Below, in pieces: positions 524 through 17,150 of a stretch of 24,000 nt of DNA (its first letter is position 1; the number at the start of each line of letters is the position of its first letter). A program made the translations under genes and the position numbers. A model generated the notes under the pieces. It was not told the DNA's origin and made no database searches. It saw only the letters and a program-made list of their open reading frames with translations. The stretch comes from Burkholderiales bacterium (GTDB lineage: Bacteria > Pseudomonadota > Gammaproteobacteria > Acidiferrobacterales > Sulfurifustaceae), in NCBI GenBank assembly GCA_036396275.1, contig DASWLD010000099.1:1-24000 (forward strand), written 5' to 3'.

Positions 524-874
524 TCAATAAAAGAGCGGTGCCATGTAGGGGAAGCCGAACCCCACGACGACCAGCGCCGCCACTATCCAGAAGGTGATCT
601 TGTAAACACGGCGCGTCGCCGGAACGGCGCAGATCTCGCCGGGCTTGCAATCGGCGACGGGGCGGAAGATGCGTCGATAAGCGAAGAATAGGGCAACGAT
701 CGCCGCGCCGAGAAACCACGGTCGGAACGGTTCGAGCGCGGTCAGGTTAACGATCCAGGCACCGCCGAGACCGAGCGACAGAAGCACCAATGGCCCGAGG
801 CAGCAGGCCGATGCCAGGACCGCCGCGAGTCCGCCGGCGGCCAGGGTGCCGGTGCCGATTCTGTCTTGGGACAT
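524..874 (-). CDS. merT: MerT, inner-membrane mercury transporter
   Basis: Internal ATG at 874 of ORF 524..1027(-), with AGGAG upstream, giving 116 aa. TM1 vicinal Cys (LASACCLGPLVL) and second pair (CKPGEIC). Colinear with Tn501 MerT to the C-terminal PLFY. Confidence 0.93.
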   Translation of the reverse strand: MSQDRIGTGTLAAGGLAAVLASACCLGPLVLLSLGLGGAWIVNLTALEPFRPWFLGAAIVALFFAYRRIFRPVADCKPGEICAVPATRRVYKITFWIVAALVVVGFGFPYMAPLFY

Positions 875-2995: not shown

Positions 2996-3026
2996 TTGAC
3001 CTGGAGTGAACTCCAAGTCTTAGGCT
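2996..3026 (+). promoter_or_regulatory. MerR-family-type promoter/operator upstream of the first ATPase
   Basis: TTGACC (2996-3001), 19-nt spacer, TAGGCT (3021-3026). The spacer carries the dyad ACCTGGAGT-GA-ACTCCAAGT (2999-3018, 8/9 symmetric). A 19-bp spacer with a centred dyad is the MerR-family hallmark. Confidence 0.65.
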
Positions 3027-3056: not shown

Positions 3057-5534
3057 ATGAGTATCCATCGCGGTTTAGATACCGCCCACAAAGCGTTTGC
3101 ACAAACCAGCGACGCCGCGACACCGACGGTCAAGCGCCAATACAAGATCGGCGGCATGGCTTGCTCGTTCTGCGTGGCAAGCATCTCCAAGGCGCTTGGG
3201 CGTTTGGCCGGGGTGCAGCGCGTGAATGTCAACCTCGCGCACGAAGAAGCGCTGGTCGAATTCAATCCGGCGCGGGTGACATCGCGCGAGATCGAGCGCA
3301 CCTTGCGCGATCTCGGCTACACACTGCGCGACCCGGATCGGTTGCGGGCGTTCGAGCAAGAAGCGGCGGAACTGGAGGAAGCGCGCGCCAATCTGTTGCT
3401 CGCCGGTGCGCATACGCTGGTCAGCTTGGGCGCGATGTCGCTCATGTGGTTGGAATGGATGCCGCCCCGAGGGATGGCGGCGATGTACTGGTTGATGCCG
3501 ATCCTCGCGCTCTCGGTCATGTTTGGACCCGGCTGGCACATTCTCGAAATGGCGTGGGCCAGCTTGCGCCGCGGCATCTTGAATCAACACGTGCTGCTCG
3601 AGTTCGGTGCGTTCGCCGGCTTGATCGGCGGCTTTCTCGGCTACGCGTTCGCGAGTTTTCCGCTGCCGGACTTTTTCGGCGTGACCGTCTTCGTCACGAC
3701 CTACCATATTCTGTCCGGCTACGTCTCGTTGCTGGTGCGCACGCGCGCCTCGCAGGCGGTGCGTAAGCTCCTGGCGCTGGTGCCACCGGTCGCGCATGTC
3801 GTGCGCGATGACGGTCGCGAGGAAGACGTGCCGCTCGCCCAGGTTCGCGTTGGGGATCGCGTGCGCGTGCGACCGGGCGAGTCGATACCGGTGGATGGCG
3901 CGGTGATCGACGGCGGCTCGGCCGTCAACGAAAGCCTGGTGACGGGCGAAGCGATTCCGGTGGAAAAGCAGCCGGGCGACGACGTGATCGGCGGCTCGAT
4001 CAACCAGGTGGGCACGCTGCTGATACGCGTCACGAAAGTCGGCGAGGAAAGTTTTCTGAGCCAGGTCGTGCGCCAGGTCGAAGAGGCGCGCGCGCTCAAG
4101 CCCTCGATCCTGATTCTGGTGGATCGTATTCTGCAAGTGTACGTGCCGGCGGTGCTGTCGATTGCCGCCGCCGCGTTTCTCTTTTGGTCGCTTGGTACTT
4201 GGCTGCTTGTCGGCGCGCCGGACTGGACGCGCGCGCTGTTCGCCGCACTCGCGGTGCTGGTGATGGGTTACCCGTGCGCGCTCGGCATGGCGACGCCGCT
4301 CGCCATGATCCGCGGTGGCGGGCTGGCGGCCGAACGCGGCATCTTGATGCGATCGGCCGAGGCGTTTCAGGCGCTCAAGGATGTGCGCACGATCGTGCTC
4401 GACAAGACCGGCACGCTCACGCAAGGCAAACCCGCGGTGGTGCGGATCGTCGTGCTCGATGGCCGCGGCGAGGACGACCTCTTGCGTCTCGCCGCTTCGA
4501 TCGAAAGCGCCTCGGAACATCCGCTCGCGCGCGCGGTCGTGGCGGAGGCCGCGGCGCGCGGATTGACCTTACTCAAGGCCGATGCGTTTCAATCCGAAAC
4601 CGGACGCGGCGTACGTGCACGCATCGGCGGTCGGTTGTGCCTCGTCGGCAATCCACGCTTCATCGAAACCGAGGGCGTCGATCTCTCTCACGCGCACACA
4701 ACCGTGGCCGCGCTGCAAGCGACCGGTAATACCGTTATCGGCGTCGCCGTAGACGACACGCTCGCCGCACTGATCGCCATCGCCGACCCGCTCAAGCCCG
4801 ACGCCGAGGAAACCATTGCGCGGCTGCGCGCGGCGGGACTCCAACCGGTGATGTTGACCGGCGATCACGCGCGCACCGCACGAACGATCGCGGCCAAGCT
4901 CGGCATCGACGACTACCACGCTGACGTACTGCCCGGGCAAAAAGCCGAAACCGTGCGCGCGCTGCAACGCGACGGCACGCGCGTCGCCATGGTCGGCGAC
5001 GGCATCAACGACGCGCCGGCGCTGATGCAAGCCGACGTCGGCATCGCCATCGGCGCCGGCACCGATATCGCCATCGAAGCGGCGGACGTGGTGTTGATCG
5101 GGACGCGCCTACGCGGCGTAGTCGATGCGTACCACATCGGCAGGGCGTCGTATCGCAAGACGGTGCAGAACCTCGCGGCTGCCTTCGCCTTCAACGGCAT
5201 CGGCGTGCCGCTCGCCGCGACCGGCGCCGTGCATCCGGTGTGGGCCATGATCGCGATGGCCGCGAGCGTCAGCACGGTACTCGCAAATTCCTTCGGCGGG
5301 CGGTTGTTGCCGCGGCGACACGGACCGCGCGCCGAGGCGACGTTCAACATCGCCAATATGCATTGTAAGCAGTGCGTCACGACCATCGGCGACGCGGTGC
5401 GTGCTCTGGACGGCGTCGAGCGCTTCAGCGGGGACGTGCCGCGCCGGCGGGTGTCGGTGGCGTATCGCACCGACCGGATCGATCCGGCCACGATTCGCGC
5501 GGCGATACAGGCACGGGACTATGAAGTCGAGTAA
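3057..5534 (+). CDS. P1B-type heavy-metal-translocating ATPase, atypical (TM4 YPC; N- and C-terminal HMA domains)
   Basis: ORF 3027..5534. ATG 3057 is preferred because the TTG at 3027 abuts the -10 box. Motifs: N-terminal [41 protein letters not shown]4 reads VMGYPCALGMATP, TM5 AFAFNGIGVP, TM6 MAASVSTV. C-terminal HMA-like domain NMHCKQC. Confidence 0.93.
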   Translation: MSIHRGLDTAHKAFAQTSDAATPTVKRQYKIGGMACSFCVASISKALGRLAGVQRVNVNLAHEEALVEFNPARVTSREIERTLRDLGYTLRDPDRLRAFEQEAAELEEARANLLLAGAHTLVSLGAMSLMWLEWMPPRGMAAMYWLMPILALSVMFGPGWHILEMAWASLRRGILNQHVLLEFGAFAGLIGGFLGYAFASFPLPDFFGVTVFVTTYHILSGYVSLLVRTRASQAVRKLLALVPPVAHVVRDDGREEDVPLAQVRVGDRVRVRPGESIPVDGAVIDGGSAVNESLVTGEAIPVEKQPGDDVIGGSINQVGTLLIRVTKVGEESFLSQVVRQVEEARALKPSILILVDRILQVYVPAVLSIAAAAFLFWSLGTWLLVGAPDWTRALFAALAVLVMGYPCALGMATPLAMIRGGGLAAERGILMRSAEAFQALKDVRTIVLDKTGTLTQGKPAVVRIVVLDGRGEDDLLRLAASIESASEHPLARAVVAEAAARGLTLLKADAFQSETGRGVRARIGGRLCLVGNPRFIETEGVDLSHAHTTVAALQATGNTVIGVAVDDTLAALIAIADPLKPDAEETIARLRAAGLQPVMLTGDHARTARTIAAKLGIDDYHADVLPGQKAETVRALQRDGTRVAMVGDGINDAPALMQADVGIAIGAGTDIAIEAADVVLIGTRLRGVVDAYHIGRASYRKTVQNLAAAFAFNGIGVPLAATGAVHPVWAMIAMAASVSTVLANSFGGRLLPRRHGPRAEATFNIANMHCKQCVTTIGDAVRALDGVERFSGDVPRRRVSVAYRTDRIDPATIRAAIQARDYEVE

Positions 5535-5576: not shown

Positions 5577-6083
5577 ATGAAACGCAATCTGATCGTGTTG
5601 ATACTGGCATCGGTAATGATCGGCGTGTTCGTCATCGCGACCCGGTTCCTGACCGGCAGCGTGGTGCCGCCGGTGGACGGCTACCTCGAGGGCGAGCACA
5701 TCCGCTTTATCCACACCGAAGCCTCCGATACCAAGATCGTGGCGCTGCTCACCGAGATGAAGGGTTCGCCGGTACTGTTGGTACCGGCGCTCGCGCGGGC
5801 GCCGGTGGAATTGCTCGCAAACGTTTATGTCTTTACCAACGGCATCCAGGGCGACGGACCGCTCAAGTTCCAAAGGGACGTATTCGATCGTCCGCCCGGC
5901 ACGGCGGGCTACAGTCCGTTGCGGCGAATCAATCTGGTAACCTGGAAAAACCCGGGCACTGCACGCCTGCTCAAGACCGCCGCCACCATTGAGGCGGCCA
6001 AGGCCAAGGGCGAGGTAACCATCGAGCAGCCGGGCGTGGTCGTCAACATGCCGCTGCTCACCTGGCCCGGCGGGCATCGGTGA
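5577..6083 (+). CDS. Membrane-anchored periplasmic protein of unknown function
   Basis: 168 aa with GAGGA RBS. N-terminal TM anchor, then VFTNG...GYSPL...LVTW...GEVTIEQPGVVVNMPLL, a pattern I recall from a widespread uncharacterised family. No Cys. Confidence 0.7.
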   Translation: MKRNLIVLILASVMIGVFVIATRFLTGSVVPPVDGYLEGEHIRFIHTEASDTKIVALLTEMKGSPVLLVPALARAPVELLANVYVFTNGIQGDGPLKFQRDVFDRPPGTAGYSPLRRINLVTWKNPGTARLLKTAATIEAAKAKGEVTIEQPGVVVNMPLLTWPGGHR

Positions 6084-6110: not shown

Positions 6111-6389
6111 ATGACTTCCATGCGTATTAACGTCGAAGTGTTCTCATCGCCCGGATGCAGCCGCTGCCAAGCCGCACGCGAGGAATTGCAGACGATCGTC
6201 GCGCAGCTCGGCCACGATCGCGTCGTATGGCGCGAGATCAACGTCGTCGACGAACTCGATTACGCCGTGCGCCTGGGCGTGCTGTCGACCCCGGCGATCG
6301 CGATCAACGGCGAGCTTCGGTTTCGGGCGCTGCCATCGGCGAAGAAACTACGCCGCGTGCTCGAAGAAATCCTCGAATCGTCCGATTAA
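6111..6389 (+). CDS. Small thioredoxin-fold protein (glutaredoxin-like/Thioredoxin_3 type), cytoplasmic
   Basis: 92 aa with no signal peptide. Active site SPGCSRCQ near the N-terminus and a cis-Pro region LSTPAIAING. An alternative start exists at ATG 6120. Confidence 0.8.
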   Translation: MTSMRINVEVFSSPGCSRCQAAREELQTIVAQLGHDRVVWREINVVDELDYAVRLGVLSTPAIAINGELRFRALPSAKKLRRVLEEILESSD

Positions 6390-6397
6390 CGTAAACT

Positions 6398-7090
6398 ATG
6401 GACCTTGAAACACTGCGCCAAGCATTGAGCCAACCGAGCCTCGCGGCGATCGGCGTCGGCTTTCTTGCCGGTTTCGTCTTCAGCTTCAACACCGTCGCGA
6501 TCGCCTCGATCCCGGTCACGCTCGCCTATGTCACCAAGGCGCGCGAACCGCGGCGCGCGGTTTGGCTCGGCGGTGCGTTCATCCTCGGACTGCTCGTGAC
6601 ACACGTCGTGCTCGGCGTCGCCGCGGCGCTCGGGGGCGACTGGGTGACGAACGTCATGGGCCGCGGCTGGGACCTCGTGCTCGGTCCGATTCTGATTTTT
6701 CTCGGACTCCTGTGGCCGGGGTGGATCAAGATTCGGCTACCGTGGTTCGCGCTGCGCGGGCAAGTCGTGTCCGGCGCTTGGGGCGCGTTCCTTCTGGCGA
6801 TTCCGTTCTCGATCGCGATCTGCCCGTTCTGCACGCCGGCGCTGCTCATCATGCTGACCGTGGCGGCCGGCATCGCGTCCGTACCGTTCGGCTTCGCGCT
6901 GCTGCTCGCCTTCGGCCTGGGACGCGCGGTGCCGATCGCACTTGGCGCCGCGAGCGTCGGCTGGCTTGAGTCGTTCAAGGTGTTGACGCGCTGGCAAAAG
7001 ACGTTCGAAATCGCCGGCGCGCTGTTACTTATCGCGAGCGGGATGTATCTCATTAGCGACTACTACGCGCCGATGGTCGGGCCGCAATGA
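6398..7090 (+). CDS. DsbD/CcdA-family transmembrane protein, non-canonical cysteines (CPFC in one helix)
   Basis: 230 aa, polytopic. Aligns with the in-window CcdA (17151), but the TM1 Cys position is Val (FSFNTVAIASIP) and the TM4 region reads IAICPFCTPALL. Confidence 0.85.
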   Translation: MDLETLRQALSQPSLAAIGVGFLAGFVFSFNTVAIASIPVTLAYVTKAREPRRAVWLGGAFILGLLVTHVVLGVAAALGGDWVTNVMGRGWDLVLGPILIFLGLLWPGWIKIRLPWFALRGQVVSGAWGAFLLAIPFSIAICPFCTPALLIMLTVAAGIASVPFGFALLLAFGLGRAVPIALGAASVGWLESFKVLTRWQKTFEIAGALLLIASGMYLISDYYAPMVGPQ

Positions 7091-7123: not shown

Positions 7124-7561
7124 ATGAGCGCATACCGCATCGGCCAGGTGACCGCCGCACTCGGATTGAGCGCGGACACGCTACGCTACTACGAGAAAAT
7201 CGGCCTGTTGCCGCGAGTGTCCCGCGCCGGCTCCGGCGTGCGCGTTTACGATGACAACGACCTGTCGCGGTTGCGTTTCATTCAGCGCGCGCAAAAGATG
7301 GATTTCTCGCTCACGGAAATCGGAATGCTGTTGCAAATGCGCGTCGCGCCGCAACGCGCACGGCAAAACGTGCGCGCCCTGGCGGCAAGGAAACTCGCCG
7401 AAATTGAAAGCCGCCTCAAGGATCTGACGCAACTGCGCCGCGAACTCAAGCTGCTGATCGATCTGTGTGCCGGGCTCAAGGGTGGATGCCCCATTATTCG
7501 ACGGATAAACGGCTCGCAATCCCATGGAACAAACGCGGGTCGCGCGCGGGCGGCAAGATAA
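7124..7561 (+). CDS. MerR-family regulator, CueR-like (monovalent-metal type)
   Basis: 145 aa. HTH YRIGQVTAALGLSADTLRYYEKIGLL, a dimerisation helix, and the metal loop DLCAGLKGGCPII (C-x6-C). No Cys at the position of MerR/ZntR Cys79. Confidence 0.9.
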   Translation: MSAYRIGQVTAALGLSADTLRYYEKIGLLPRVSRAGSGVRVYDDNDLSRLRFIQRAQKMDFSLTEIGMLLQMRVAPQRARQNVRALAARKLAEIESRLKDLTQLRRELKLLIDLCAGLKGGCPIIRRINGSQSHGTNAGRARAAR

Positions 7562-7591: not shown

Positions 7592-7621
7592 TTGTCGCTC
7601 GCAGGGATTGGCGGCTACAAT
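7592..7621 (+). promoter_or_regulatory. Possible sigma70-type promoter (TTGTCG-18 nt-TACAAT)
   Basis: Hexamers at 7592-7597 and 7616-7621, downstream of the regulator gene and upstream of the next + strand genes. Sequence match only. Confidence 0.25.
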
Positions 7622-8032
7622 TCACGACATGAGCGCTGGACGCGAGATTTTCTCTTGAATTGGCTGCGGGCACGCCGGCGTTACATCGTCACCATCGCCG
7701 CACTCGCGATAGTGTCGTTGGCGATGGTTCGCTACGCATGTCCATGGCCGCTCGACGTATCCGACGCGTCGGCCGCCGTGGCGCAAGCGCCCGCGTCGCC
7801 GATGTCCGCAAGTCAGCCCTGCGGCCATGAGAACTGCACGTACACCGACAGCAACCATGCGGCGCCCGATCAAACGCTGCTGACGATATTATTCGCGCCG
7901 TTGTGGGTCGCGGTGTTTTTCTTCGCGGCGGCCGCCATCCCGCTCGCGGCAATGGCGTCATGGCGCGCGCGTACCTTCCCGCGGCTTCCCGGCTATCCCC
8001 CCATCCTCGAGTTCTATCGCCTGCGTATTTGA
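7592..8032 (+). CDS. Small hypothetical Cys/His-containing membrane protein (start uncertain)
   Basis: ORF with GC-rich third positions and two hydrophobic helices. Contains ACPWP and CGHENC, with C-terminus PRLPGYPPILEFYRLRI. The TTG 7592 start has no RBS and overlaps the putative promoter. In-frame alternatives are TTG 7655 and ATG 7724. Confidence 0.35.
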   Translation: MSLAGIGGYNSRHERWTRDFLLNWLRARRRYIVTIAALAIVSLAMVRYACPWPLDVSDASAAVAQAPASPMSASQPCGHENCTYTDSNHAAPDQTLLTILFAPLWVAVFFFAAAAIPLAAMASWRARTFPRLPGYPPILEFYRLRI

Positions 8033-8080: not shown

Positions 8081-8791
8081 GTGGTTGTCGCATTTCCTTA
8101 CATGCGTCGCGCGCCCATTGAGGTAGCGCGGTCGCGGTTGCTCCTCGTCGTCGGCCTTGCGCTGGCAGTGTCGGCGCCGCCGCTCGCGGCACATTCGCTG
8201 AAGGACGTGGAGTCCGATCTACATCGCGACGAGCACTACGCGCAGTTCGTCGACATGCCGGCACCGGAATTTCGCCTGATCGATCTCGCCGGCAAGCCGG
8301 CCAGCCTCGGCGATCTCAGGGGGAAAGTCGTCGTGCTGAATTTCATCTACGCGCGCTGCACCGACGTCTGTCCGCTGCACATGAACCTAATTGCCCGCTT
8401 GCAGTCCATGGTTAACGCCGCTCACATGAGCGAACAAGTGCGATTCATCACGATCGCGACCGATACCGAAGACGCGAAAGCCACACGCAAGATCATGGCC
8501 ACCTATGCCAAGACCTACCGTCTCGATACGCGCAACTGGCGGTTCCTGTATCGTGCCGATGCCGCGCGGGCGGACACGACGCAGCGCGTGGCTGAAACCT
8601 ACGGGCTTAAGTTCACCGTCGCCGGCGCCGGTGTGCAGATGCACGGGGTGGTCACCCACGTCATCGACCAGACCGGGCAACTGCGGGCGCGTTTTCACGG
8701 ATTGAAGTTCGAGCCGGTGCACTTGGTGACGTACGTCAGCGCGCTGGTCAAGGACGATCACGGCATGGACTCGGCGAGGCGTGGATCATGA
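8081..8791 (+). CDS. SCO1/SenC-family copper chaperone / thiol-disulfide oxidoreductase
   Basis: GTG 8081 with GGAGG 6 nt upstream. Signal/anchor sequence, CTDVCP (CxxxC) and a downstream His (VVTHVIDQTG). Confidence 0.9.
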   Translation: MVVAFPYMRRAPIEVARSRLLLVVGLALAVSAPPLAAHSLKDVESDLHRDEHYAQFVDMPAPEFRLIDLAGKPASLGDLRGKVVVLNFIYARCTDVCPLHMNLIARLQSMVNAAHMSEQVRFITIATDTEDAKATRKIMATYAKTYRLDTRNWRFLYRADAARADTTQRVAETYGLKFTVAGAGVQMHGVVTHVIDQTGQLRARFHGLKFEPVHLVTYVSALVKDDHGMDSARRGS

Positions 8792-9645
8792 CCGCCGCGT
8801 CGCGATATAAAGTCAGTACTTTCTGGATCGTTATTGCCGCCGCGAGCCTGCTGGCAAATGTCGCGGCGCGCGCGGCGGAACCGATCGTCGCGCTCGCTTC
8901 CGGCGGCGACGTTGACACCGTTTTTATCGCGCGGGCGAATGCACTTTATCGCGGCGATGACGCCGGCCGACGGTGGACGCGCGTCGCGCTGCCCGCCGAG
9001 ATTCGAGACGGCGCTATCGCCACGCTCGCGGCGCCGGCCAAGCGCCAGGGCGTGCTGTATCTGGCCGGTCCCGGGTTCGGCGTGTGGCACAGCGCCGATG
9101 GCGGCCGGAGCTGGGTGGCGCGCAACAACGGGCTGCCGAGCCTCGACGTCGCCGCACTCGCCGCGCATGCGGATCAACCCGATACGCTCTATACCTATGT
9201 CCCGGGCAAGGGCGTCTTCCGCAGCGAAGACGCGGGCGCGCGCTGGAAGTGGATCGACAACGGACCGCGCGGTCCCATCGGACAGTTCATCCATTCGAAC
9301 ATGCCGGGGAGCATGCAGACCGGCTGGCTGTTTGCCGCAACGCCGAAAGGCGTCAGTCGCTCGATGGATTGTTTTTGTCTCTGGCAGGACGCGGGCGGGC
9401 TGGTCGCGGCGGTGACCACTGTCGCCTACGATCCGCGCGAGCCGAAGCATGTCTATGCGGCGACGGCCAAGGGACTGTTGCTCAGCACCGATGGCGGAGA
9501 GGAGTGGACGCTGCTGAGCGCACCCGCTTCTCGCATTACCGCGCTGGCGGTATCGCCGACCGGCACGGTGTTCCTCGGCACCGCCGACGGCGGGTTGTAT
9601 CGCAGTAACGACCAAGCGAAATCCTGGGAGCGGGTCGATGCGTAG
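8788..9645 (+). CDS. BNR/Asp-box repeat beta-propeller protein, secreted
   Basis: ATGA overlap with SCO1. Signal peptide. Asp-boxes SADGGRSW, SEDAGARW, STDGGEEW, SNDQAKSW and GDDAGRRW. Contains an MDCFCLW motif. Confidence 0.85.
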   Translation: MTAASRYKVSTFWIVIAAASLLANVAARAAEPIVALASGGDVDTVFIARANALYRGDDAGRRWTRVALPAEIRDGAIATLAAPAKRQGVLYLAGPGFGVWHSADGGRSWVARNNGLPSLDVAALAAHADQPDTLYTYVPGKGVFRSEDAGARWKWIDNGPRGPIGQFIHSNMPGSMQTGWLFAATPKGVSRSMDCFCLWQDAGGLVAAVTTVAYDPREPKHVYAATAKGLLLSTDGGEEWTLLSAPASRITALAVSPTGTVFLGTADGGLYRSNDQAKSWERVDA

Positions 9646-10096
9646 TCTTGTATCAGTAGCCTGCATCGTACTGGCGGCCGGCGTGGCACCGGCGCATGCC
9701 GGTAACGATACGCCGGTTGCGCCAAACTCCGAGCAGGCCGCATCCGGGCGCGCCATCTATCAAACGTATTGCGCGTCCTGCCACGGCGCGAACGGCGAAG
9801 GGGCGCCCGCGTGGCGCGAGCGCGACGCGCGCGGCGAACTTCCACCGCCGCCGCACGATGCGCAAGGGCACGCCTGGCGGCATTCGGACGCAATGCTCTC
9901 TCGCATGATCCTGCATGGCTGGCGCGACCCGTTCAACAAGACCGAGCGCGTGACCATGCCGGCCTTTACCGGAACGATCGCGCCGCAAGAAGTTCGCTTT
10001 GTTATCGCCTATCTCAAGACGCTGTGGACGCCCGAACAGCGGCAGTTCCAACGGGAAGAGAGTCAACGGCAATCGTTCGCACCCGCGGCGCATTAG
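9638..10096 (+). CDS. Periplasmic c-type cytochrome (monohaem)
   Basis: 8-nt overlap with the previous gene. Signal peptide, CASCH haem motif, distal TMPAF. Confidence 0.88.
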   Translation: MRSLVSVACIVLAAGVAPAHAGNDTPVAPNSEQAASGRAIYQTYCASCHGANGEGAPAWRERDARGELPPPPHDAQGHAWRHSDAMLSRMILHGWRDPFNKTERVTMPAFTGTIAPQEVRFVIAYLKTLWTPEQRQFQREESQRQSFAPAAH

Positions 10097-10129
10097 CAGA
10101 AGAGGATTGTCCAACGAGGTACTGACATT

Positions 10130-11095
10130 ATGAAACCGGAAACCCAGAATAAGTTGGCCATCACGGTCGTGGTCGCCGCGGTCGTCGTGGCGGCCGCCGC
10201 GCTCATCATGGTGATGCGCATGTCATATCCACCCGATGAGGCGCGCGTCATGCGGTTGATCGAGCAGCAGCTGGCGAAACAAGACGGCTCGGCGGCCGTG
10301 CCCGCACTCACTGAAGCGCGCGTGGTGCGACTGATCGAGGAGCGCCTGCCGGCGATGGAATCCGCCGGCAAGGGAATAAGCGAAGCCCGGTTGAAGAAAC
10401 TCATCGATGAACGGCTGGCGGGGAAGAGCGCCTTGCCGGACAAGGAATTCGAAGCGCGTGTGGAAAAAGGCATCGTCGCCTTCATCGAGAAGCAGCGGCG
10501 CGCGGAACAGGAGCGGCCGAACCAACTCGCGCGCAACCTACCGCGACCGAACAAAAGCGATCATATTTACGGGAATCCCACCGCCCCGGTGACGCTCATC
10601 GAGTACTCCGACTTCGAGTGCCCGTTCTGCAAGCGCTTTCACGACAGCGTCAAGCAAGTCGTCGACGCGTCCAAGGGCCAAGTGAAGTGGGTGTATCGCC
10701 ACTTCCCGATCGAGCAGCTTCATCCGGTCAAGGCGCGCAAGGAAGCGGTCGCCGCCGAATGCGCCGGCGAGCTCGGCGGCCACGATGCCTTCTGGAAGTT
10801 CGCCGATCGGTTTTTCGAGTTGACGCCGTCGAACAATCGCACCGACGTCGACACCGTGCTGCCGCAGATCGCCCGAGAAATTGGGCTTGACGAGAAGCAG
10901 TTCGCCTCGTGCGTCGCCAGCGGCAGGCACGACCAGCGCATCGACAAGGACATCCGCGACGCCCAAACTTCCGGCGCGAACGGCACGCCGTGGAGCGTGA
11001 TCGTGTCGAAGGGCGGCAAAACCTACGTGCTCTCGGGCGCGCAGCCGCAGGCGGCGATCAAGCAGCTCACCGAATTGGCGCTACAGGAGAAGTAG
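10130..11095 (+). CDS. DsbA-family thiol:disulfide oxidoreductase, membrane-anchored, with repeat-containing linker
   Basis: 321 aa. N-terminal TM, then EARVMRLIEQQL / EARVVRLIEERL / EARLKKLIDERL / FEARVEKGIVAFIEKQ repeats, then a thioredoxin-fold domain with the active site FECPFCKRF. Confidence 0.9.
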   Translation: MKPETQNKLAITVVVAAVVVAAAALIMVMRMSYPPDEARVMRLIEQQLAKQDGSAAVPALTEARVVRLIEERLPAMESAGKGISEARLKKLIDERLAGKSALPDKEFEARVEKGIVAFIEKQRRAEQERPNQLARNLPRPNKSDHIYGNPTAPVTLIEYSDFECPFCKRFHDSVKQVVDASKGQVKWVYRHFPIEQLHPVKARKEAVAAECAGELGGHDAFWKFADRFFELTPSNNRTDVDTVLPQIAREIGLDEKQFASCVASGRHDQRIDKDIRDAQTSGANGTPWSVIVSKGGKTYVLSGAQPQAAIKQLTELALQEK

Positions 11096-11098
11096 ATC

Positions 11099-11755
11099 GT
11101 GCGCAGCTACGTCAGCGACCTGTACACCGCATTCGCCCGGGTGTTTACCCGCGCCGGGTACATCGTACTGGCGAGCGCGCTGGCGCTGGCGGCGTTTTTG
11201 TTCGCGGTGTGGTTTCCGAACTTCGCTCTGATAGGCGAGGTGTTCGGCACGCCGGACGTGGCGCTCATTGCCAAACTCCGATTCGCTCTGAGCCTACTCG
11301 GCGGCATTGCCACCAATTTTGATCTGCTGTCGGCGGGATACACCGTCGCGATCGCCGTGCTCTTCGGTATCAACACGGCCATGATCGCGTACTTGCTCAC
11401 GCAAAAACGTGTTGTCGCCGCCGGGCAGAACCTTGTCATCGGCTCGGGCGGTATGGCAACCGGCGCACTCGGTATCGGCTGCGCCGCCTGTGGCTCGCTC
11501 GTTTTCACCACGGTGCTGTCCTCGTTCGGCGCCGCGAGTGCCGTCGCTCTGCTGCCGTGGCAAGGCGAGGAGTTCGGAATTCTCGGTGCCGCGCTGCTTC
11601 TGGTATCGGTGTCGCTGATGAGCCGCAAGATCGCCGCGCCGGGCAGTTGTGAAACGCCGGCACGCGGCGTGGGGCGCACCCGCGATCGCATTGCAACACC
11701 AGTAAACGTAAAACGACTCACATTCACTCAACTCGATGAGGTAACGAAACGATGA
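11099..11755 (+). CDS. Polytopic membrane protein with intramembrane GCAAC motif (MerC-like signature)
   Basis: GTG 11099, 3 nt after the DsbA stop, with AGGAGA upstream. Several TM helices. GALGIGCAACGSLVFTTVLSSFGAASAV resembles MerC GCAACFPALASFGAA. Confidence 0.7.
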   Translation: MRSYVSDLYTAFARVFTRAGYIVLASALALAAFLFAVWFPNFALIGEVFGTPDVALIAKLRFALSLLGGIATNFDLLSAGYTVAIAVLFGINTAMIAYLLTQKRVVAAGQNLVIGSGGMATGALGIGCAACGSLVFTTVLSSFGAASAVALLPWQGEEFGILGAALLLVSVSLMSRKIAAPGSCETPARGVGRTRDRIATPVNVKRLTFTQLDEVTKR

Positions 11756-12186
11756 ACCGGCTGAGAACAACCATCCTGATTTTCGCGCTGGGCCTGTCGC
11801 TGCCCGCGTTCGCCGGCGGCATTCCGGCAAAGCTCTACAAGAATCCGAGCTGCGGCTGCTGCGGGGAGTACACGAAATATTTGGAGTCGCACGGATACCA
11901 AGTCGAGGTCATTCCCACGCGCGACATGACCGCGATCAAGAAGACAAACAAAGTGCCGCAGCCGCTCGAAGCCTGTCACACAACGTTGATCAGCGGGTAT
12001 GTGTTCGAGGGCCACGTTCCGGTGGAGACCATCAACCGCGTGCTTAAGGAGCACCCGATCATTCGTGGCGTGTCGGTGCCGGGCATGCCGGCCGGATCGC
12101 CGGGAATGACCGGAGTGAAACGGGGTCCGCTGGACGTGTACTACCTCAGCAACTCGCCCGAGCCGAAAGTGTACGAGTCGCGCTGA
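11752..12186 (+). CDS. copG: CopG-family (DUF411) periplasmic copper-binding protein
   Basis: ATGA overlap with the previous gene. Signal peptide, SCGCCGEY (CxCC), ACHTT and GMPAGSPGM, the DUF411/CopG signatures. Confidence 0.9.
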   Translation: MNRLRTTILIFALGLSLPAFAGGIPAKLYKNPSCGCCGEYTKYLESHGYQVEVIPTRDMTAIKKTNKVPQPLEACHTTLISGYVFEGHVPVETINRVLKEHPIIRGVSVPGMPAGSPGMTGVKRGPLDVYYLSNSPEPKVYESR

Positions 12187-12218
12187 CGCATCGGCGTCAC
12201 CATCACGCGGAGGATCAA

Positions 12219-12482
12219 ATGAACGCGGAGACGGAAACGGCTGTAGTACCCGCCGGGCGGCCCTGGATAAACGGACGCCGGCGTGGGTGGTGGCTCGCGG
12301 GCATTGCAATTCTGGCCGGCGTCGCCCTGGGCAGGGAATGGCTGGCGGCGATCGGGGCGTTGCCGATTTTACTTTCGCTCCTGCCGTGCGCGGCGATGTG
12401 CGCGCTCGGCTTGTGCATGAACCACCAGACCGGCGGCGCGTGCGATCAATCGAAGACGGAAACCACGGAGAAGCCGACATGA
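12219..12482 (+). CDS. Small two-TM Cys-rich protein, DUF2933-like
   Basis: GGAGGA RBS 5 nt upstream, 87 aa. GALPILLSLLPCAAMCALGLCMNH aligns with the in-window DUF2933 protein (GALPFILLALCPLLHIFGHGGHG). Confidence 0.55.
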   Translation: MNAETETAVVPAGRPWINGRRRGWWLAGIAILAGVALGREWLAAIGALPILLSLLPCAAMCALGLCMNHQTGGACDQSKTETTEKPT

Positions 12483-13168
12483 TGTGCAACAAACAGATTC
12501 TCACCTTGGTAGTGGCACTGTTTCTGGTGGCGCCCGCGTTCGGCGCGGGCGATGCCGCGCGTGGGGCAAAAGTTTTCGGCACGTGCATCGCCTGTCATTC
12601 GCTGCGAGTCGGCGAACACCTCACCGGACCGAGTCTGGCTGGCATGGTTGGCCGCCGAGCGGGAACGACCGATGGATTTGCCCGCTACTCGGAAGCGTTG
12701 CGCAAAACCGACGTGATCTGGGACGAGAAGTCGCTCGATGCGTGGATCGCCGACCCGCAGAAGTTCATCCCCGGCAACTTGATGACGTTTCGCGGCCTGC
12801 GCGACGCCGGGCAACGCGCGGATCTCATCGCATTCCTCAAGAATCCGAAGCCGGCGGCGGAGTCCGCGGGCGGTGGCATGGGCGCCATGATGGCGTCGCC
12901 GCGGCTGGAGAGCTTGCGCGCCGTCGAACCGCAAGCGCGCGTGACGGCGATTCGCTACTGCAAGGACAGCTACTTTGTCACGCTCGCCACCGGCAAGACG
13001 TTCCCGTTCTGGGAAGTCAATCTGCGCTTCAAAACGAACGGCACGCCCGACGGCCCGCCGGCCGGCAAGCCCGTGATCTTACGCGGCGGCATGCAGGGCG
13101 ACCGCGCCTCGATTGTGTTCGCGAGTCCCGATGAGATCGGGAAGTTCGTCAAAAAGCGCTGCGAATGA
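12479..13168 (+). CDS. Class I c-type cytochrome fused to an uncharacterised C-terminal domain
   Basis: ATG 12479 (ATGA overlap). The track ORF from 12287 is an upstream extension. Signal peptide, CIACH, LMTF, a Met-rich linker GGGMGAMMASP, then a ~90-aa domain with two Cys (RYC...KRCE). Confidence 0.85.
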   Translation: MMCNKQILTLVVALFLVAPAFGAGDAARGAKVFGTCIACHSLRVGEHLTGPSLAGMVGRRAGTTDGFARYSEALRKTDVIWDEKSLDAWIADPQKFIPGNLMTFRGLRDAGQRADLIAFLKNPKPAAESAGGGMGAMMASPRLESLRAVEPQARVTAIRYCKDSYFVTLATGKTFPFWEVNLRFKTNGTPDGPPAGKPVILRGGMQGDRASIVFASPDEIGKFVKKRCE

Positions 13169-13752
13169 ACAAACCGGTGCAACCCTTGGTGCCGGATCAT
13201 TTGCTACCCGCGACACACAGCCGCGCGTGGCGCGGCTACGTCGTCGCACTGGTCGTGTTTGGCGCAATCGGGATTCTCCTTGCCTACGGTCTCGGTCTCG
13301 ATCCGAAGCGCATTCCCTCGCCGCTAATCGGCAGACCGGTGCCAACGTTCGAGTTGCCGCCCGTGCAAGGCCGCACGCTCGGCCTGTCGAGCGAAAACCT
13401 CACGGGCGAGGTGTCATTGGTAAACGTCTTTGCTTCCTGGTGTGCGGCGTGCTTGGACGAGCACCCGTTATTCATGCGTCTCAAGCGCGACAACGTCGTG
13501 CCCATCCATGGGCTCAACTACAAGGACGCGCCCGATGACGCCGCCGCCTGGCTCGCGCGCCACGGCGATCCCTATACCCGCACCGGCGCCGACCGCGACG
13601 GGCGCGTCGGGATCGACTGGGGCGTCTACGGCGTGCCGGAAACCTTCGTCATCGACCGCGACAGCCGCATCGCGTACAAGTTCATCGGGCCGCTCAGCGA
13701 TAAAGACGTAAACGAAACATTGCTCCCGTTGCTGGAGAAGTTGCGCCAATGA
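13165..13752 (+). CDS. dsbE: DsbE/CcmG-type periplasmic thiol:disulfide oxidoreductase
   Basis: ATGA overlap. N-terminal anchor, WCAAC active site, GVYGVPETFVID. Confidence 0.9.
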   Translation: MNKPVQPLVPDHLLPATHSRAWRGYVVALVVFGAIGILLAYGLGLDPKRIPSPLIGRPVPTFELPPVQGRTLGLSSENLTGEVSLVNVFASWCAACLDEHPLFMRLKRDNVVPIHGLNYKDAPDDAAAWLARHGDPYTRTGADRDGRVGIDWGVYGVPETFVIDRDSRIAYKFIGPLSDKDVNETLLPLLEKLRQ

Positions 13753-14363
13753 GTCTTCGAACGGCGACTTTCATCCGCCGCGCTGCCGCTGTCGCGCTCG
13801 GCTTGATCGCGGCGGTCGCGGTGGCGGTGGTCGCGTACCGCTATGCGACCGGGCAATCAGAAGGCGAGGGCGCCGGCGCCGATGCCACGATCAAGGTCGG
13901 TGGCCGGGACTTCATTCGATGGGACACGCCGCGCACGCTGCCGGCCGTCGTCTTTGCCGACGAGAATGGCCGTGAGGTCACGCTCGAGCAATTCCGCGGC
14001 CGCGTGGTGCTGCTAAACGTTTGGGCCACGTGGTGCGTGCCGTGCCGCAAGGAGATGCCGACGCTCGACCGATTGCAGGCGAAGCTCGGCGGTCCGGACT
14101 TCGAGGTCGTCGCGCTCTCGATCGATCAGGACGGAATCGCCGCCGTGCGCAAGTTCTATCAAGAGGTCGGCATCAAGCATCTGCGGATTTACAACGACCC
14201 GACGGCCGATGCGACTGCGCGCCTCAATATTCTCGGCATACCGGCGACGTTGCTCGTCGATCGCGCGGGCCGCGAGGTTGGGCGCGCCTTGGGGCCGGCG
14301 GAGTGGGATGCGCCGGACGTGATCGAACTCATTCGGGCGCATTGGAACCCGCCGTCAAAATGA
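13749..14363 (+). CDS. tlpA: TlpA-family thiol:disulfide oxidoreductase
   Basis: ATGA overlap. TM anchor, VWATWCVPCRKEMP, GIPATLLVD. Confidence 0.9.
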   Translation: MSLRTATFIRRAAAVALGLIAAVAVAVVAYRYATGQSEGEGAGADATIKVGGRDFIRWDTPRTLPAVVFADENGREVTLEQFRGRVVLLNVWATWCVPCRKEMPTLDRLQAKLGGPDFEVVALSIDQDGIAAVRKFYQEVGIKHLRIYNDPTADATARLNILGIPATLLVDRAGREVGRALGPAEWDAPDVIELIRAHWNPPSK

Positions 14364-14418
14364 TATGCGGTGCTCTTTCGCGCTTACGCCTATTCGTGAT
14401 GAGTAAGGAGCTTCAGAC

Positions 14419-15972
14419 ATGTTGACACGCCGAACCGCGTTAAGGGTGCTAACCGCCGGGGTGGGAATCCTTGCGGCACCGTTGCCGCTGCGGCGCGCGT
14501 TTGCCGGGCGTGAACCCGATTTGGTGCTGAGGCTCACCGCCGCGCCCGACGACGTGCAACTCCGGCCGGGACCCAGGACGCGAGTGCTGCGTTTCATGGG
14601 TGAGGTGTTGCGTGGCCGCACCGACGCCGTTAAACCCGCACCGGGTTACCTTGGACCGACGATTGAATTGCGCCGCGGCGAGCGCGTGCGCATTCAGTTC
14701 CGAAATCGCGCCTTCGGTCCGAGCATCGTCCACTGGCACGGCATGATCGTCCCCGACGTCGCCGACGGACATCCGCGTCACGCCGTCGGACCCGGCGGTG
14801 ATTACCTATACGAATTTACGGTGCAAAATCCGGCGGGGACTTATCTTTATCATCCCCATCCGCACGGACTCACCGGCGCGCAAGTGTACTACGGCTTGGC
14901 CGGGCTGCTCATCGTGCGCGACTCGGAGGAAACCGTGGGCGGACTGCCGGCCGGCGAGCGCGAGCTTGCGCTCGTGATCCAGGACCGGCGGGTCGGGCGC
15001 GACAATCAGTTCAGCTTCAAACGCATGATGATGGACGACATGAACGGCGTGCTCGGCGACACGGCGTTGGTCAATGGCAGACCCGACGCCGCCTTCACGG
15101 TGGTGCCGCGCACTTACCGGTTGCGGCTGGCCAATGTCTCGAACGCGCGCATTTACAAGCTCGCCTGGTCGGACGGCCGGCCGATGCGAGTCATTGCCAC
15201 CGATAACGGTCTTTTTTCCTCCGCCGAGGGCATTCAGACCCGGCCGTACGTGGTGGTCGCGCCGTTCCAACGTCTCGAACTGATCGAGGACTTCGGCGCG
15301 CGGCGCTCGAAAACGGAGATTGCGCTGATGAGCCGGGCGTTCTCGTCGCTATCCATGGATACCATGATGGGCGGCATGATGGGTAACGGCGGCGGAGGAA
15401 TGATGGGTGGAGGTGGAATGATGGGCGGCGGCATGATGGGTGGGATGATGCGGGGCATGATGGGCGCGGACCAAGGCGAGGAGCTTGTAGTGGCGCGCTT
15501 TACCGTCGCATCCGGGACGCGCGTTCGCGACGCGGATGTGCGTCTGCCCGATCCCATACCGTTTCCGGAGAAAACCGACGCCGAGTTATATACGGAGCTT
15601 GCGTTTCGCCATATGCGCGGCTTCCTGAACGGTCGCCGCTTCAACATGCTGGCGGTCGCCGACGAGGAGCGGCTGCCTCTTGGCCGCGCCGCCGTGTGGA
15701 CGTTCGCGAACGACGGGCCGGGAATGGCCATGCCGCACCCCATGCACATTCACGGCGTGCGTTTCCGGATTCTCGAGCGCAGCGGCGGCGCGGCGGCGGG
15801 CGATCTGCGCGAGGGCATCGTCGACGCCGGCTACAAGGACATGTTTCTGATCTTCCCCGGCGAGCGTGTGCGCGTCGGCCTCGTGCCGACCGAGCCCGGC
15901 ATGTTCATGTACCACTGTCACAACCTCGAGCACGAGGACGCCGGCATGATGCGCAACGTTGTCGTGAGTTGA
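14419..15972 (+). CDS. Tat-exported three-domain multicopper oxidase with Met/Gly-rich insert
   Basis: AAGGAG RBS. Twin-arginine leader MLTRRTALRVL. Copper motifs HWHG, HPHPHG, HPMHIHG, HCHNLEHEDAGMM. Insert MDTMMGGMMGNGGGGMMGGGGMMGGGMMGGMMRGMMG. Confidence 0.93.
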   Translation: MLTRRTALRVLTAGVGILAAPLPLRRAFAGREPDLVLRLTAAPDDVQLRPGPRTRVLRFMGEVLRGRTDAVKPAPGYLGPTIELRRGERVRIQFRNRAFGPSIVHWHGMIVPDVADGHPRHAVGPGGDYLYEFTVQNPAGTYLYHPHPHGLTGAQVYYGLAGLLIVRDSEETVGGLPAGERELALVIQDRRVGRDNQFSFKRMMMDDMNGVLGDTALVNGRPDAAFTVVPRTYRLRLANVSNARIYKLAWSDGRPMRVIATDNGLFSSAEGIQTRPYVVVAPFQRLELIEDFGARRSKTEIALMSRAFSSLSMDTMMGGMMGNGGGGMMGGGGMMGGGMMGGMMRGMMGADQGEELVVARFTVASGTRVRDADVRLPDPIPFPEKTDAELYTELAFRHMRGFLNGRRFNMLAVADEERLPLGRAAVWTFANDGPGMAMPHPMHIHGVRFRILERSGGAAAGDLREGIVDAGYKDMFLIFPGERVRVGLVPTEPGMFMYHCHNLEHEDAGMMRNVVVS

Positions 15973-16114
15973 TCCCATCGAGATGCATGCAGCCGTTGGC
16001 CTAGCTCTTATCTCAACCAATCGGTGCCATGGGCGCACTGCATGGCAGCCGTTCTTGGCGACGTGTCACCCGACCCGTTATTGTCGTTAACTTGAAACTG
16101 AAAAGGAGCACATC

Positions 16115-16426
16115 ATGAAAGAGTCGACGCTACTCATACAATCCGCGGTCGCAAGCCTGCTCGTTCTAGGAATGACGGCGGGCGCCGGCTCCGCCTTCGC
16201 TGCAAAAGGCGGAATCGATCGTTGCGCCGGGATTGCCAAAGCCGGTAAGAACGATTGCGGGACGGCGACGGCATCGTGCGCCGGCACGTCCAAGGTGGAC
16301 GGCGACAAAAACGCCTGGATTGCCGTACCGAAGGGGACGTGCGAAAAGATCGTCGGCGGCCAATTGGCCGACGCCGGTGCAATCGCGAAGCACATGAAGG
16401 AAATGGAAATGATGAAAAAGAAGTGA
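16115..16426 (+). CDS. DUF2282-type secreted Cys-containing peptide (bufferin BufA1-like precursor) with Met/Lys-rich tail
   Basis: AAGGAG RBS, 103 aa. Sec signal ending AFA. Core [47 protein letters not shown] (Cys37, 48, 55, 76) matches the DUF2282 pattern [10 protein letters not shown]...C.G....D...W..VP.G.C. Tail [13 protein letters not shown]. Confidence 0.8.
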
Positions 16427-16435
16427 TTCAGATGG

Positions 16436-16461
16436 CCGATCCCGGCGCGCGCCGGGATCGG
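16436..16461 (+). terminator. Perfect 26-nt GC-rich palindrome after the DUF2282 gene (partial terminator/RNA stabiliser candidate)
   Basis: CCGATCCCGGCGC|GCGCCGGGATCGG starts 10 nt after the stop. No clear U-tract follows (TCCTTGG), so the terminator call is weak. Confidence 0.4.
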
Positions 16462-16505
16462 TCCTTGGATCGCGCTGGAATCCATCTTCATTTTCGGAGC
16501 GCTTT

Positions 16506-17108
16506 GTGAATCGACATGTTCTTGCGGCAGTAATGGCGAGCCTTCTCGGCGTCCTGCTTCCTGCCTCTGAGTCCGCGGCGCAGGACGTGGCCGCCAAGCG
16601 CGGCTTTCCTTTCGCTAATCACGGCAACGGCTTCGCGCTGTCGCCGAAGGTTTTGCTCGCGGCGGACGGCGTTTCCGACGGCGGCTTGCGTAAGCAATCG
16701 TCCGCGAGCGTCGATGGCGCGGACGAATTATTGCCGCCGGACCGGGCTTTCACCGTTTCCATTTCCGCCAAGGACGCCGACAACTTGGTGGCGGTGTTCA
16801 CTCCCGCGGAAGGTTATTTCCTGTATCGCGACAAGTTCATATTTCGCGTACAACAACCGCCGGGTATCGAGGTCGCGAACGTTGCGATCCCTCGCGGCGA
16901 AATCAAGGACGATCCGATCTTCGGGAAAACCGAGGTCTTCCATCGGCCGGTGCGGGTACGGGTTCAACTGAAGAGAACGAATTCTTCCGCGCGCAGCTTG
17001 ATGCTCTACGTCAGGTACCAGGGATGCAACGAACCGCTGGCGGTTTGTTATATCCCGATCGAAAAAACTTTGCGCATCACGCTACCGCCGGCGGCTCGCG
17101 GCGGCTGA
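16506..17108 (+). CDS. Stand-alone DsbD alpha (N-terminal periplasmic) domain protein
   Basis: GTG start with GGAG 7 nt upstream. Signal peptide. LLPPDRAF...GYFLYRDK...YQGCNEPLAVCYIP parallels E. coli DsbD-alpha (LPVDQAF...GYYLYR...YQGCADAGFCYPP). Confidence 0.85.
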   Translation: MNRHVLAAVMASLLGVLLPASESAAQDVAAKRGFPFANHGNGFALSPKVLLAADGVSDGGLRKQSSASVDGADELLPPDRAFTVSISAKDADNLVAVFTPAEGYFLYRDKFIFRVQQPPGIEVANVAIPRGEIKDDPIFGKTEVFHRPVRVRVQLKRTNSSARSLMLYVRYQGCNEPLAVCYIPIEKTLRITLPPAARGG

Positions 17109-17150
17109 ATCCGAATATGCATTCCTACGGATGCCAGAGTGACCTAAACA

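Follow-up and report, generated by a model that had tools for sequence, protein, structure and literature searches.

A YPC-type P1B ATPase and its DUF7482 neighbour: a candidate two-part, metal-induced pump of a distinct and widespread family

The 24,000-nt stretch of contig DASWLD010000099.1 from a Burkholderiales bacterium (hereafter the window) possesses at 3057-5534 a gene for a P1B-type ATPase in which YPC stands in the place of the CPC signature of the fourth transmembrane helix (TM4). The gene is preceded by a MerR-type promoter and directly followed by a gene for a DUF7482 protein. The analysis covered this window and its relatives, which were collected from protein look-up loci, genomes and metagenomes (labelled L001-L071). 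The promoter, the two genes and the main segments of the ATPase are listed below, with the CopA of Archaeoglobus fulgidus (AfCopA) as reference.

2996..3026, + strand: MerR-type operon promoter, -35 TTGACC at 2996-3001, 19-bp spacer, -10 TAGGCT at 3021-3026
3057..5534, + strand: YPC-type P1B ATPase, 825 amino acids (aa), an uninterrupted open reading frame (ORF) with complete catalytic motifs
3141..3323, + strand: N-terminal HMA domain (Pfam PF00403), residues 29-89, with GMACSFC (C36/C39)
3585..3728, + strand: MB'/M1/M2 segment, remodelled Cu(I) entry and exit by the position analysis of 50 YPC versus 118 CPC sequences
4269..4277, + strand: TM4 signature Y405-P406-C407, TAC CCG TGC in GYPCALGMATP, standing in for CPC
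5190..5195, + strand: TM5 F712-N713 in AFAFNG, standing in for YN (AfCopA Y682-N683)
5247..5273, + strand: TM6 M731-I-A-M734-A-A-S737-V738-S, within AMAASVSTVLANS
5337..5531, + strand: C-terminal HMA domain, residues 761-825, with NMHCKQC (C770/C773)
5577..6083, + strand: DUF7482 protein (Pfam PF24298), 168 aa, an N-terminal TM helix and a predicted periplasmic domain

The translation of the ATPase gene contains TGE (296), DKTGT (449), SEHP (487) and GDGINDAP (647) along with the E1-E2 ATPase and HAD domains. The catalytic motifs are therefore intact, as a preliminary description of this DNA had stated, and its reading of GYPCALGMATP in TM4 with TAC as codon 4269-4271 and of FN (F712-N713) in TM5 was borne out as well. 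Two of its statements needed refinement. In TM6 the reported MAASVS is present, but compared with AfCopA the change is from MxxSS to MxxSV (S715 to V738), while M711 and S714 are kept. HMA domains do occur at each end of the protein (GMACSFC and NMHCKQC), but the two-ended layout is not unprecedented, as AfCopA has a C-terminal metal-binding domain. The contrast which it drew with the canonical CopA of the same window is real, as the protein at 20253-22832 keeps CPC (504), YN (811) and MSFSS (840). Y405-P406-C407 aligns with C380-P-C382 of AfCopA and thus provides the proline signature (xPx) of the P1B class. TM5 (NLAAAFAFNG) and TM6 (AMAASVSTVLANS) contain neither Lys nor Asp. The N-terminal HMA has the clade signature GMxCSFC, and CSFC recurs among the YPC representatives. 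The C-terminal HMA is found in most clade members, is missing from forms of ~775 aa and is replaced by DUF7482 in fusion proteins.

An NCBI entry identical to the window protein (P0001) is named 'heavy metal translocating P-type ATPase [Burkholderiales bacterium]', and the identical protein is on record from two contigs. The ATPase was scored with the curated hidden Markov models (HMMs) of NCBIfam. It exceeded the cut-off of TIGR01525 (571 bits vs 346), of the copper subfamily TIGR01511 (477 vs 397) and of the cadmium subfamily TIGR01512 (388 vs 313.5), while it stayed below that of the CopA equivalog NF007952 (501 vs 1316) and far under those of the ZntA equivalogs. As both the copper and the cadmium subfamily models were passed, the curated HMMs are not discriminating for this protein.

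The YPC motif is fixed in the relatives. Among the 120 best homologues (64-100% identity), 114 matched the motif pattern and all 114 have YPC; the remaining six gave no match to the pattern and were not resolved. FN and M-x-x-S-[VI] are as constant as YPC in the matched ones. In an exhaustive search of 50%-identity representatives, YPC was found in all top-scoring clusters to ~41% identity (16 of 16 YPC-type representatives), and below this, at ~595 bits, the canonical CPC/YN/MxxSS pumps start. Every YPC locus recovered from genomes and metagenomes has it too. In 44 distinct DNA loci the Tyr codon is TAC in 24 and TAT in 20, and the use of both codons is a signature of selection for Tyr. A neighbour-joining tree on 672 well-aligned columns separated 50 YPC and 118 CPC sequences as reciprocally monophyletic groups. 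The preliminary description had asked whether YPC homologues form a clade with the same accessory genes or occur sporadically with signs of decay. They do form a clade, accompanied by the same accessory gene (DUF7482), and the matched homologues show no decay, the genes being full length with intact motifs.

Members of the YPC clade occur in Betaproteobacteria, Chloroflexota, Rokubacteria, Gemmatimonadota, Nitrospinota, Binatia, Tectomicrobia, Armatimonadota and Acidobacteriota. Cultured strains with members include Aromatoleum toluclasticum and Pelomicrobium sp. A plasmid of Deinococcus peraridilitoris also carries an ATPase that is a presumed member. Second, more divergent ATPases with 50-53% identity are present near the YPC operon in two loci (L042, 12919-15030; L015, 17205-19811). 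The one in L042 has GYPCALGISTP, hinting at paralogous sub-clades inside the YPC family.

To describe the ion pathway, positions conserved in at least 90% of the YPC clade were compared with the CPC clade (50 YPC vs 118 CPC sequences). AfCopA numbering was transferred through an alignment to that protein and the residue roles follow PMC9433437. The positions are as follows.

C380 (CPC motif): Y405 in the YPC clade
C382 (CPC motif): C407, kept
Y682 (YN motif): F712
N683 (YN motif): N713, kept
M711 (MxxSS motif): M734, kept
S714 (MxxSS motif): S737, kept
S715 (MxxSS motif): V738
M158 (entry Met, MB'): Q177
D159 (beside the entry Met): H178
E205 (entry, M2): S224
D336 (entry, M3): D356, kept
E189 (exit-side Glu of M2): G208

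Column 405 holds Tyr in all clade members that were scored, against Cys in 100% of the CPC representatives. At column 712, F is found in 92% of the YPC clade and Y in 98% of the CPC clade. Of the entry triad Met/Glu/Asp, Asp alone is retained (Q177, S224, D356). New clade-invariant residues are H217 and Y216 in M2 and M731, one turn ahead of M734. The closest solved structures are those of Cu(I) pumps, AfCopA (458 bits), ATP7B and LpCopA, while ZntA scored 300 bits; the origin of the YPC ATPase evidently lies close to the Cu(I) pumps. In AfCopA, mutation of C380, C382 and the YN and MxxSS residues weakens Cu(I) binding (PMC9433437). Three of those positions are changed here, so canonical Cu(I) binding would not be possible in the YPC pump. 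The predicted transmembrane site is reduced to Cys407, Asn713 and Met734, together with Met731 and the new His217, and is flanked by the aromatic Tyr405 and Phe712.

The DUF7482 protein has a basic N-terminal end, a single TM helix and a Cys-free domain of ~140 aa. It is conserved as strongly as the pump, with 64-74% identity among the 120 best-scoring homologues. Polar positions without variation among 64 diverse sequences are H46, E48, S50, M61, N88, Q99, D101, R116, W123, N157, M158 and W163. CusF and similar periplasmic proteins that bind Cu(I)/Ag(I) use ligands of this kind (a His, two Met and a Trp), and the His/Met/Met/Trp set of DUF7482 is accordingly considered as a putative metal site. 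The AlphaFold (AF2) model predicted an alpha/beta domain with a pLDDT of 87, and a fold search of the PDB with this model gave no match. A second profile search with the DUF7482 alignment returned the close relatives again and added nothing. No description of DUF7482 or PF24298 was found in a full-text search of the literature, though subscription literature may hold some.

The gene for DUF7482 is strictly associated with the YPC ATPase when searched from the side of the pump. It follows the ATPase directly in all nine loci from the protein look-up and in the window, and it is next in all 12 metagenome YPC loci which have at least ~480 bp of downstream sequence, giving 21 of 21 informative YPC loci in addition to the window. 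In the same metagenome scan it followed a CPC-type ATPase in none of at least 12 loci. The reverse search, with DUF7482 as query, found an adjacent ATPase with GYPCALGMATP in ~41 of 49 informative genome loci. Furthermore, ATPase and DUF7482 form one ORF in three metagenome-assembled genomes of Chloroflexota (L033, L047 and L052). At the join, the ATPase end (...ANSFGVRLL) runs through a short basic linker into the TM helix and domain of DUF7482, and the C-terminal HMA is displaced. As the C-terminus of the ATPase is cytoplasmic, a ninth helix would put the fused domain outside, which is also where the free DUF7482 is predicted to be. Hence the two marks of a heteromeric pump, strict co-occurrence (21 YPC loci and the window) and gene fusion (three cases), were both found, suggesting that DUF7482 may be a physical subunit of the pump. 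Two further candidate fusions, MerA-DUF7482 and HMA-DUF7482 in L061 and L049, were dropped, as their pieces lie in different frames on short contigs.

The other genes of the operon and the surrounding features of the window are listed below.

42-329, - strand: merP, in the mer module at the left edge of the window
524-874, - strand: merT, with a CC pair
~910-940, read on the - strand: divergent mer operator/promoter TTGACTCCGCACTCAAGTACGGACCTAAGCT
944-1372, + strand: three-Cys merR
1706-2743, - strand: IS110-family transposase (DEDD_Tnp_IS110 and Transposase_20), between merR and the YPC promoter
6111..6389, + strand: small thioredoxin-like protein with CSRC as CxxC and without signal peptide; matches to Thioredoxin_3 and redox_disulf below cut-off
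6398..7090, + strand: DsbD_TM/CcdA-like membrane protein (Pfam PF02683)
7124..7561, + strand: MerR-family regulator 'MerR2', with two Cys, a C-x6-C-P-I-I loop and Arg at the Cys79 column
20253-22832: canonical CopA, with two YHS and two HMBD N-terminal domains and no HMA

A spacer of 19-20 bp is the hallmark of promoters controlled by the MerR family (PMC3431237). The promoter ahead of the operon has a 19-bp spacer with the dyad CCTGGAGT-GA-ACTCCAAG, as had been proposed for this gene, and it recurs in relatives; the same promoter type was found upstream of the YPC operon in nine loci (L001, L016, L019, L022, L023, L056, L060, L070 and L071). The half-sites of the window dyad match the E. coli zntA promoter, the sequence and position of which were verified. 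In L001 and L016 the promoter reads CTTGACTCTGGAGTGGACTCCAGGGTTTAGCCT and has the -35 element, the dyad (CTCTGGAGT/ACTCCAG) and the 20-bp spacer in common with E. coli PzntA. MerR2 presumably activates the promoter at 2996-3026. Its subtype, conserved in L070 (4399-4803) and L071 (6266-6661), has Arg where divalent sensors have Cys79 and CueR has Ser77. Many betaproteobacterial regulators of YPC loci show CC...C-x9-C-P-I-L or C...C-x8-C-P-I-L instead and are closest to the ZntR/MerR models, just under the cut-off (131 vs 143; 139.8 vs 150.85). The Chloroflexota regulators represent a third type, closest to CadR/PbrR. None of the associated MerR-family proteins reached the cut-off of an NCBIfam equivalog. 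In L001 (17022-17813) a MerR-type regulator is fused to a thioredoxin-like domain.

Among the operon companions, the thioredoxin-like gene was present in 14 of 61 related loci and directly follows DUF7482 in L006, L070 and L071. Most YPC operons are accompanied by a DsbD_TM protein or a related two-Cys membrane protein of ~225 aa. The latter stands by the pump in at least 16 loci (e.g. L004, 10846-11517; L007, 7327-8004) and has the Cys motifs FVEPC... and NxPACA... with a faint ArsG/DsbD_TM-like match. Further recurrent companions are a small cytosolic HMA chaperone upstream, a periplasmic HMA protein, a MacB-type ABC system and an outer-membrane protein. Periplasmic HMA or CusF-like genes lie downstream in many loci, and one YPC cluster contains a CusF_Ec-like gene. 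The upstream cytosolic HMA chaperone genes along with the downstream periplasmic HMA/CusF-like, MacB-type ABC and outer-membrane genes give the operon an export context.

At its left edge the window has a classical mer module, and its merA presumably lies off the window. The order merP-merT, divergent merR, promoter and YPC operon is common to the window, L070 and L071, and in L009 merR is directly upstream of the pump, beside rearranged and partly truncated mer genes. True mer operons (MerA ending in SCCAG, MerT, MerP and three-Cys MerR) were found within 10 kb in ~12 of ~27 betaproteobacterial YPC loci, the window included. These operons are variably placed and oriented, some copies of merA are truncated, and L071 adjoins conjugative-transfer genes, which together point to mosaic mobile islands. 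L070 is 89% identical and shares the flanks but lacks the IS110 element; the insertion at 1706-2743 is therefore recent, and it spared the promoter. The gap of ~190 bp between merT and merP (330-523) is unusual and AT-rich. REP-like GC-rich hairpins (CTTCTCCC-tccg-GGGAGAAG and CCCCTCTCCC-ggag-GGGAGAGGGG) lie at 2820-2930, between the IS/merR side and the promoter, and similar elements are at the same place in L070 (110-180).

Downstream of the regulator, an ORF at 7592-8032 encodes a protein of 146 aa with a CGHENC motif, which looks membrane-associated and is situated between the regulator and SCO1; it had no family match, and no counterpart was found in the other loci. Copper and thiol-redox genes on one strand fill 8081-19259, and this long run may be read through from the YPC operon. 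It contains SCO1/SenC, a BNR/Ycf48-like protein, two cytochromes c, a DsbA-like protein, a DUF411 (CopG-like) protein, two TlpA-like redoxins, a multicopper oxidase (14419-15972), a split DsbD with DsbD_N (16506-17108) and DsbD_TM (17151-17891), and a CMD/AhpD-like protein. The canonical CopA is followed by a DUF2933 gene (22857-23108), which is overlapped in another frame by an ICMT/PEMT-type membrane methyltransferase gene (22927-23754).

On the basis of these observations, we consider it somewhat probable (roughly 55%) that 3057-5534 and 5577-6083 together encode a two-part, metal-induced P1B pump of a distinct and widespread family outside the TM4 signatures known to us. In such a pump the TM helix of DUF7482 would pack against the ATPase as a ninth helix. 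The metal would be a soft, thiophilic ion bound with a low coordination number and supported by aromatic or His residues. It would be passed from the cytosolic HMA domains or a chaperone to Cys407 and Met734 and be released to the periplasm on formation of the E2P state, where the periplasmic domain of DUF7482, with its invariant His/Met/Met/Trp and no Cys, would receive it at the outer mouth. Periplasmic reducing power may come from the thioredoxin-like and DsbD-like proteins. Outward transport is presumed from the family. The proposal of the preliminary description that the changes mean an altered specificity or mechanism, and not a dead gene, is supported as a class of explanation by the clade, the entry and exit changes and the dedicated partner.

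The identity of the metal is less certain, as mer genes and copper genes both recur among the neighbours. Our tentative choice, at somewhat less than even odds, is a coinage metal in the monovalent state, Cu(I)/Ag(I)/Au(I). The ancestry among Cu(I) pumps, the kept Cys/Asn/Met, the two-Cys regulator, the Cys-free His/Met/Trp partner and the nearby copper genes all point in that direction. Hg(II) or another divalent soft metal is possible at about one chance in three, with the Cys79-type regulators of most lineages, the zntA-like promoters and the mer association in its favour, and the rest is left to some other substrate. A more far-reaching version is that this is the first P1B family working only as a heteromer, with an extracytoplasmic subunit of new fold, a low-coordination site and a novel job, either as a Hg(II)/Ag(I) pump or as an inward pump to cytosolic HMAs; we regard this version as rather unlikely.

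Several points weigh against the two-part pump. DUF7482 occurs without the ATPase in ~8 loci, which means that its role is not strictly pump-dependent. In L058 a stand-alone DUF7482 is a lipoprotein beside a multicopper oxidase. On an Indioceanicola profundi plasmid (L068; NZ_CP030129.1, 4362-9429) a stand-alone DUF7482 of 197 aa with its own MerR-family regulator follows merT-merF-merA and a second flavoprotein oxidoreductase, with no P-type ATPase nearby. Adjacency and fusion prove a functional linkage, not a stable complex, and transport, metal binding and the contact between ATPase and partner are deduced from sequence. The regulators vary by lineage, with two Cys here and three or four elsewhere, and their hints on ion charge conflict. 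Finally, there is CopAL6, the product of a synthetic metagenomic 'CopA-like' gene, in which the helix equivalent to TM4 contains YPC and each end bears an HMA. Its expression increased both Cu content and sensitivity to Cu, a result that its authors interpreted as import (Li et al. 2022, PMC11082258). This phenotype could equally be explained by an incomplete pump without its partner.

Among the competing explanations, a pump dedicated to Hg(II) or another divalent soft metal and working with the neighbouring mer system survives best, although we think it unlikely. A single thiolate at Cys407 with Tyr405 and His217 would avoid the near-irreversible bis-thiolate trap of CPC. The mer operons near many betaproteobacterial loci, the shared mer-YPC gene order of the window, L070 and L071, the merR directly upstream in L009 and the DUF7482 which follows merT-merF-merA and a MerR gene on the Indioceanicola plasmid would all be expected of such a pump. 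The same is true of the regulators, most of which have Cys at the Cys79 column with C-x8/9-C and come nearest, below cut-off, to the ZntR/MerR models, and of the L001 and L016 promoters, which are nearly the E. coli zntA promoter. However, the variable placement of mer and the truncated merA make co-selection possible, as is typical of mosaic mobile metal islands, and many loci (L001, L002, L004, L006 and L008) have no mer genes nearby. In the window lineage the regulator contains no more than two Cys, with Arg in the Cys79 column. DUF7482 lacks Cys altogether, whereas MerP handles periplasmic Hg(II) by Cys pairs, and its invariant His/Met/Met/Trp resembles Cu(I)/Ag(I) binders. The Lys and Asp of P1B-2 pumps are also missing, which speaks against a divalent ion.

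An ATP-driven importer, in which DUF7482 would bind the metal in the periplasm and the ATPase would carry it inwards to the cytosolic HMAs in a mer-like logic of import to detoxify, appears improbable. In E. coli delta-copA, Cu resistance fell and Cu accumulation was highest with CopAL6, which was called a Cu importer (PMC11082258). The cytoplasmic entry residues for chaperone delivery (M158 and E205) are gone in the clade, the dedicated outward-facing partner recalls the binding proteins of importers, and the mer operons often found nearby depend on Hg(II) import. Nevertheless, the CopAL6 data consist of growth and whole-cell metal of an over-expressed protein with two Cu-binding HMAs and no partner, and toxicity plus binding would account for them. 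A metal-activated MerR promoter for uptake would be sensible only if the metal were then detoxified in the cytosol, and the operon has no conserved gene for this, while the upstream cytosolic HMA chaperones and the downstream periplasmic and outer-membrane genes fit export. We know of no rigorous demonstration of import by a P1B ATPase.

We are similarly doubtful that this is an ordinary Cu(I) efflux pump with tolerated substitutions and the same function as the canonical CopA of the window. Its nearest characterised relatives are Cu(I) pumps, the cut-off of the copper subfamily was passed (TIGR01511, 477 vs 397), the equivalents of C382, N683, M711 and S714 are retained, the local regulator is CueR-like in its Cys pattern, and the window, with SCO1, CopG/DUF411, a multicopper oxidase and CopA, forms a copper island. 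Against this, three of the positions whose mutation impairs Cu(I) binding in AfCopA (C380, YN and MxxSS; PMC9433437) are changed. Throughout a deep clade these changes are constant and go with altered entry and exit residues and a dedicated partner, and the window already has a canonical CopA. CopAL6 did not complement delta-copA (PMC11082258), and the HMM matches are not discriminating, as the cadmium-subfamily cut-off was passed also (TIGR01512, 388 vs 313.5).

The single transition between the codons and the IS110 element just upstream of the operon might suggest an error of sequencing or assembly, with TAC called for TGC, or a pseudogene in decay. Both were rejected and can be practically dismissed: Tyr was found wherever the motif was located, in >150 homologues from independent assemblies with both TAC and TAT in use, the ORF is full length with intact motifs and its identical protein comes from two contigs, and the IS110 element lies upstream of an intact promoter which L070 has in the same form without any IS.

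Sorting and metal prediction of P1B ATPases rest on the TM4/TM5/TM6 signatures, and the YPC clade breaks all three in addition to the entry and exit residues. The clade has thousands of members in soil and groundwater bacteria of many phyla, and the public records name them inconsistently as copper-, cadmium- or generic heavy-metal-translocating ATPases. If the substrate is not Cu(I), thousands of annotations and the counts of "copper resistance" in metagenomes would be wrong. The clade is essentially unstudied, conserved and large, with a rebuilt ion path. The coupling with DUF7482, if it is a true subunit, would represent the first accessory subunit of the P1B pump class and would give a direct handle on the poorly understood release of ions on the outside by these pumps. 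The natural fusions are ready-made structure targets, and the window offers a complete cassette of promoter, pump, partner, redox pair and regulator.

The P1B-1 Cu(I)/Ag(I) ATPases (CopA of A. fulgidus and L. pneumophila, ATP7A/B) are the best match to the window protein, with AfCopA at 458 bits and ~40% identity to the CPC representatives. In both, the domain order, the N-terminal HMA and the catalytic motifs are the same, and so are the second TM4 Cys, the TM5 Asn and, in TM6, the Met and the first Ser. The YPC proteins differ by YPC/FN/MxxSV in place of CPC/YN/MxxSS, by Gln/Ser/Gly in place of the entry Met/Glu and exit Glu, and by the new His217 and Met731. They form a separate clade with a DUF7482 partner, while none was present at the at least 12 CPC loci. 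The metal-binding domain at the C-terminus of A. fulgidus CopA (Agarwal et al. 2010, as cited in PMC7558416) is in line with the delta-N delta-C constructs used for that protein (PMC9433437).

The CopAL6 paper was the sole match found in the literature for 'YPC' together with P1B, as an incidental mention. Placed by its published description, not by sequence, CopAL6 very probably belongs to the same clade as the window ATPase. It was expressed alone and with Cu only, and E. coli delta-copA was not rescued (PMC11082258). The family, the partner gene and the changes of the pathway were not recognised in that work, and the phenotype was read as Cu import (PMC11082258). Our full-text search of the literature found neither a YPC subgroup nor an accessory subunit of a P1B pump described, though subscription literature may differ.

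The P1B-2 pumps have CPC in TM4, Lys in TM5 and Asp in TM6, and the TM4 signatures are CPH in P1B-3, SPC in P1B-4 and PCP in P1B-5. To our knowledge, YPC is not among the subgroups of the 2014 P1B classification of Smith, Smith and Rosenzweig. With P1B-2 (ZntA and CadA, under ZntR-type control) the YPC systems share MerR-family control; several of their promoters are like PzntA and many regulators score best with ZntR models. The similarity of the pump itself is weaker (300 bits), CPC, the TM5 Lys and the TM6 Asp are missing, and the YPC-associated regulators remain under every NCBIfam equivalog cut-off. The signatures of P1B-3, -4 and -5 are not present in the YPC ATPase either, so that the absence of a match to CPC, CPH, SPC or PCP, as noted in the preliminary description, holds.

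We know of no accessory subunit for any P1B ATPase. Outside this class, KdpFABC, the beta subunit of Na,K-ATPase and the CDC50 partner of P4-ATPases offer a likeness, being cases of a single-pass protein with an extracytoplasmic domain that is genetically tied to a catalytic subunit. DUF7482 has no homology to those subunits, and its association with the pump is read from adjacency and fusions. CusF resembles DUF7482 in another respect, as both are Cys-free and periplasmic (by prediction for DUF7482) with a His, two Met and a Trp, which are invariant in DUF7482. DUF7482 differs from CusF by its predicted alpha/beta fold, its likely membrane anchor and its gene, which is situated right after that of the pump or fused with it.

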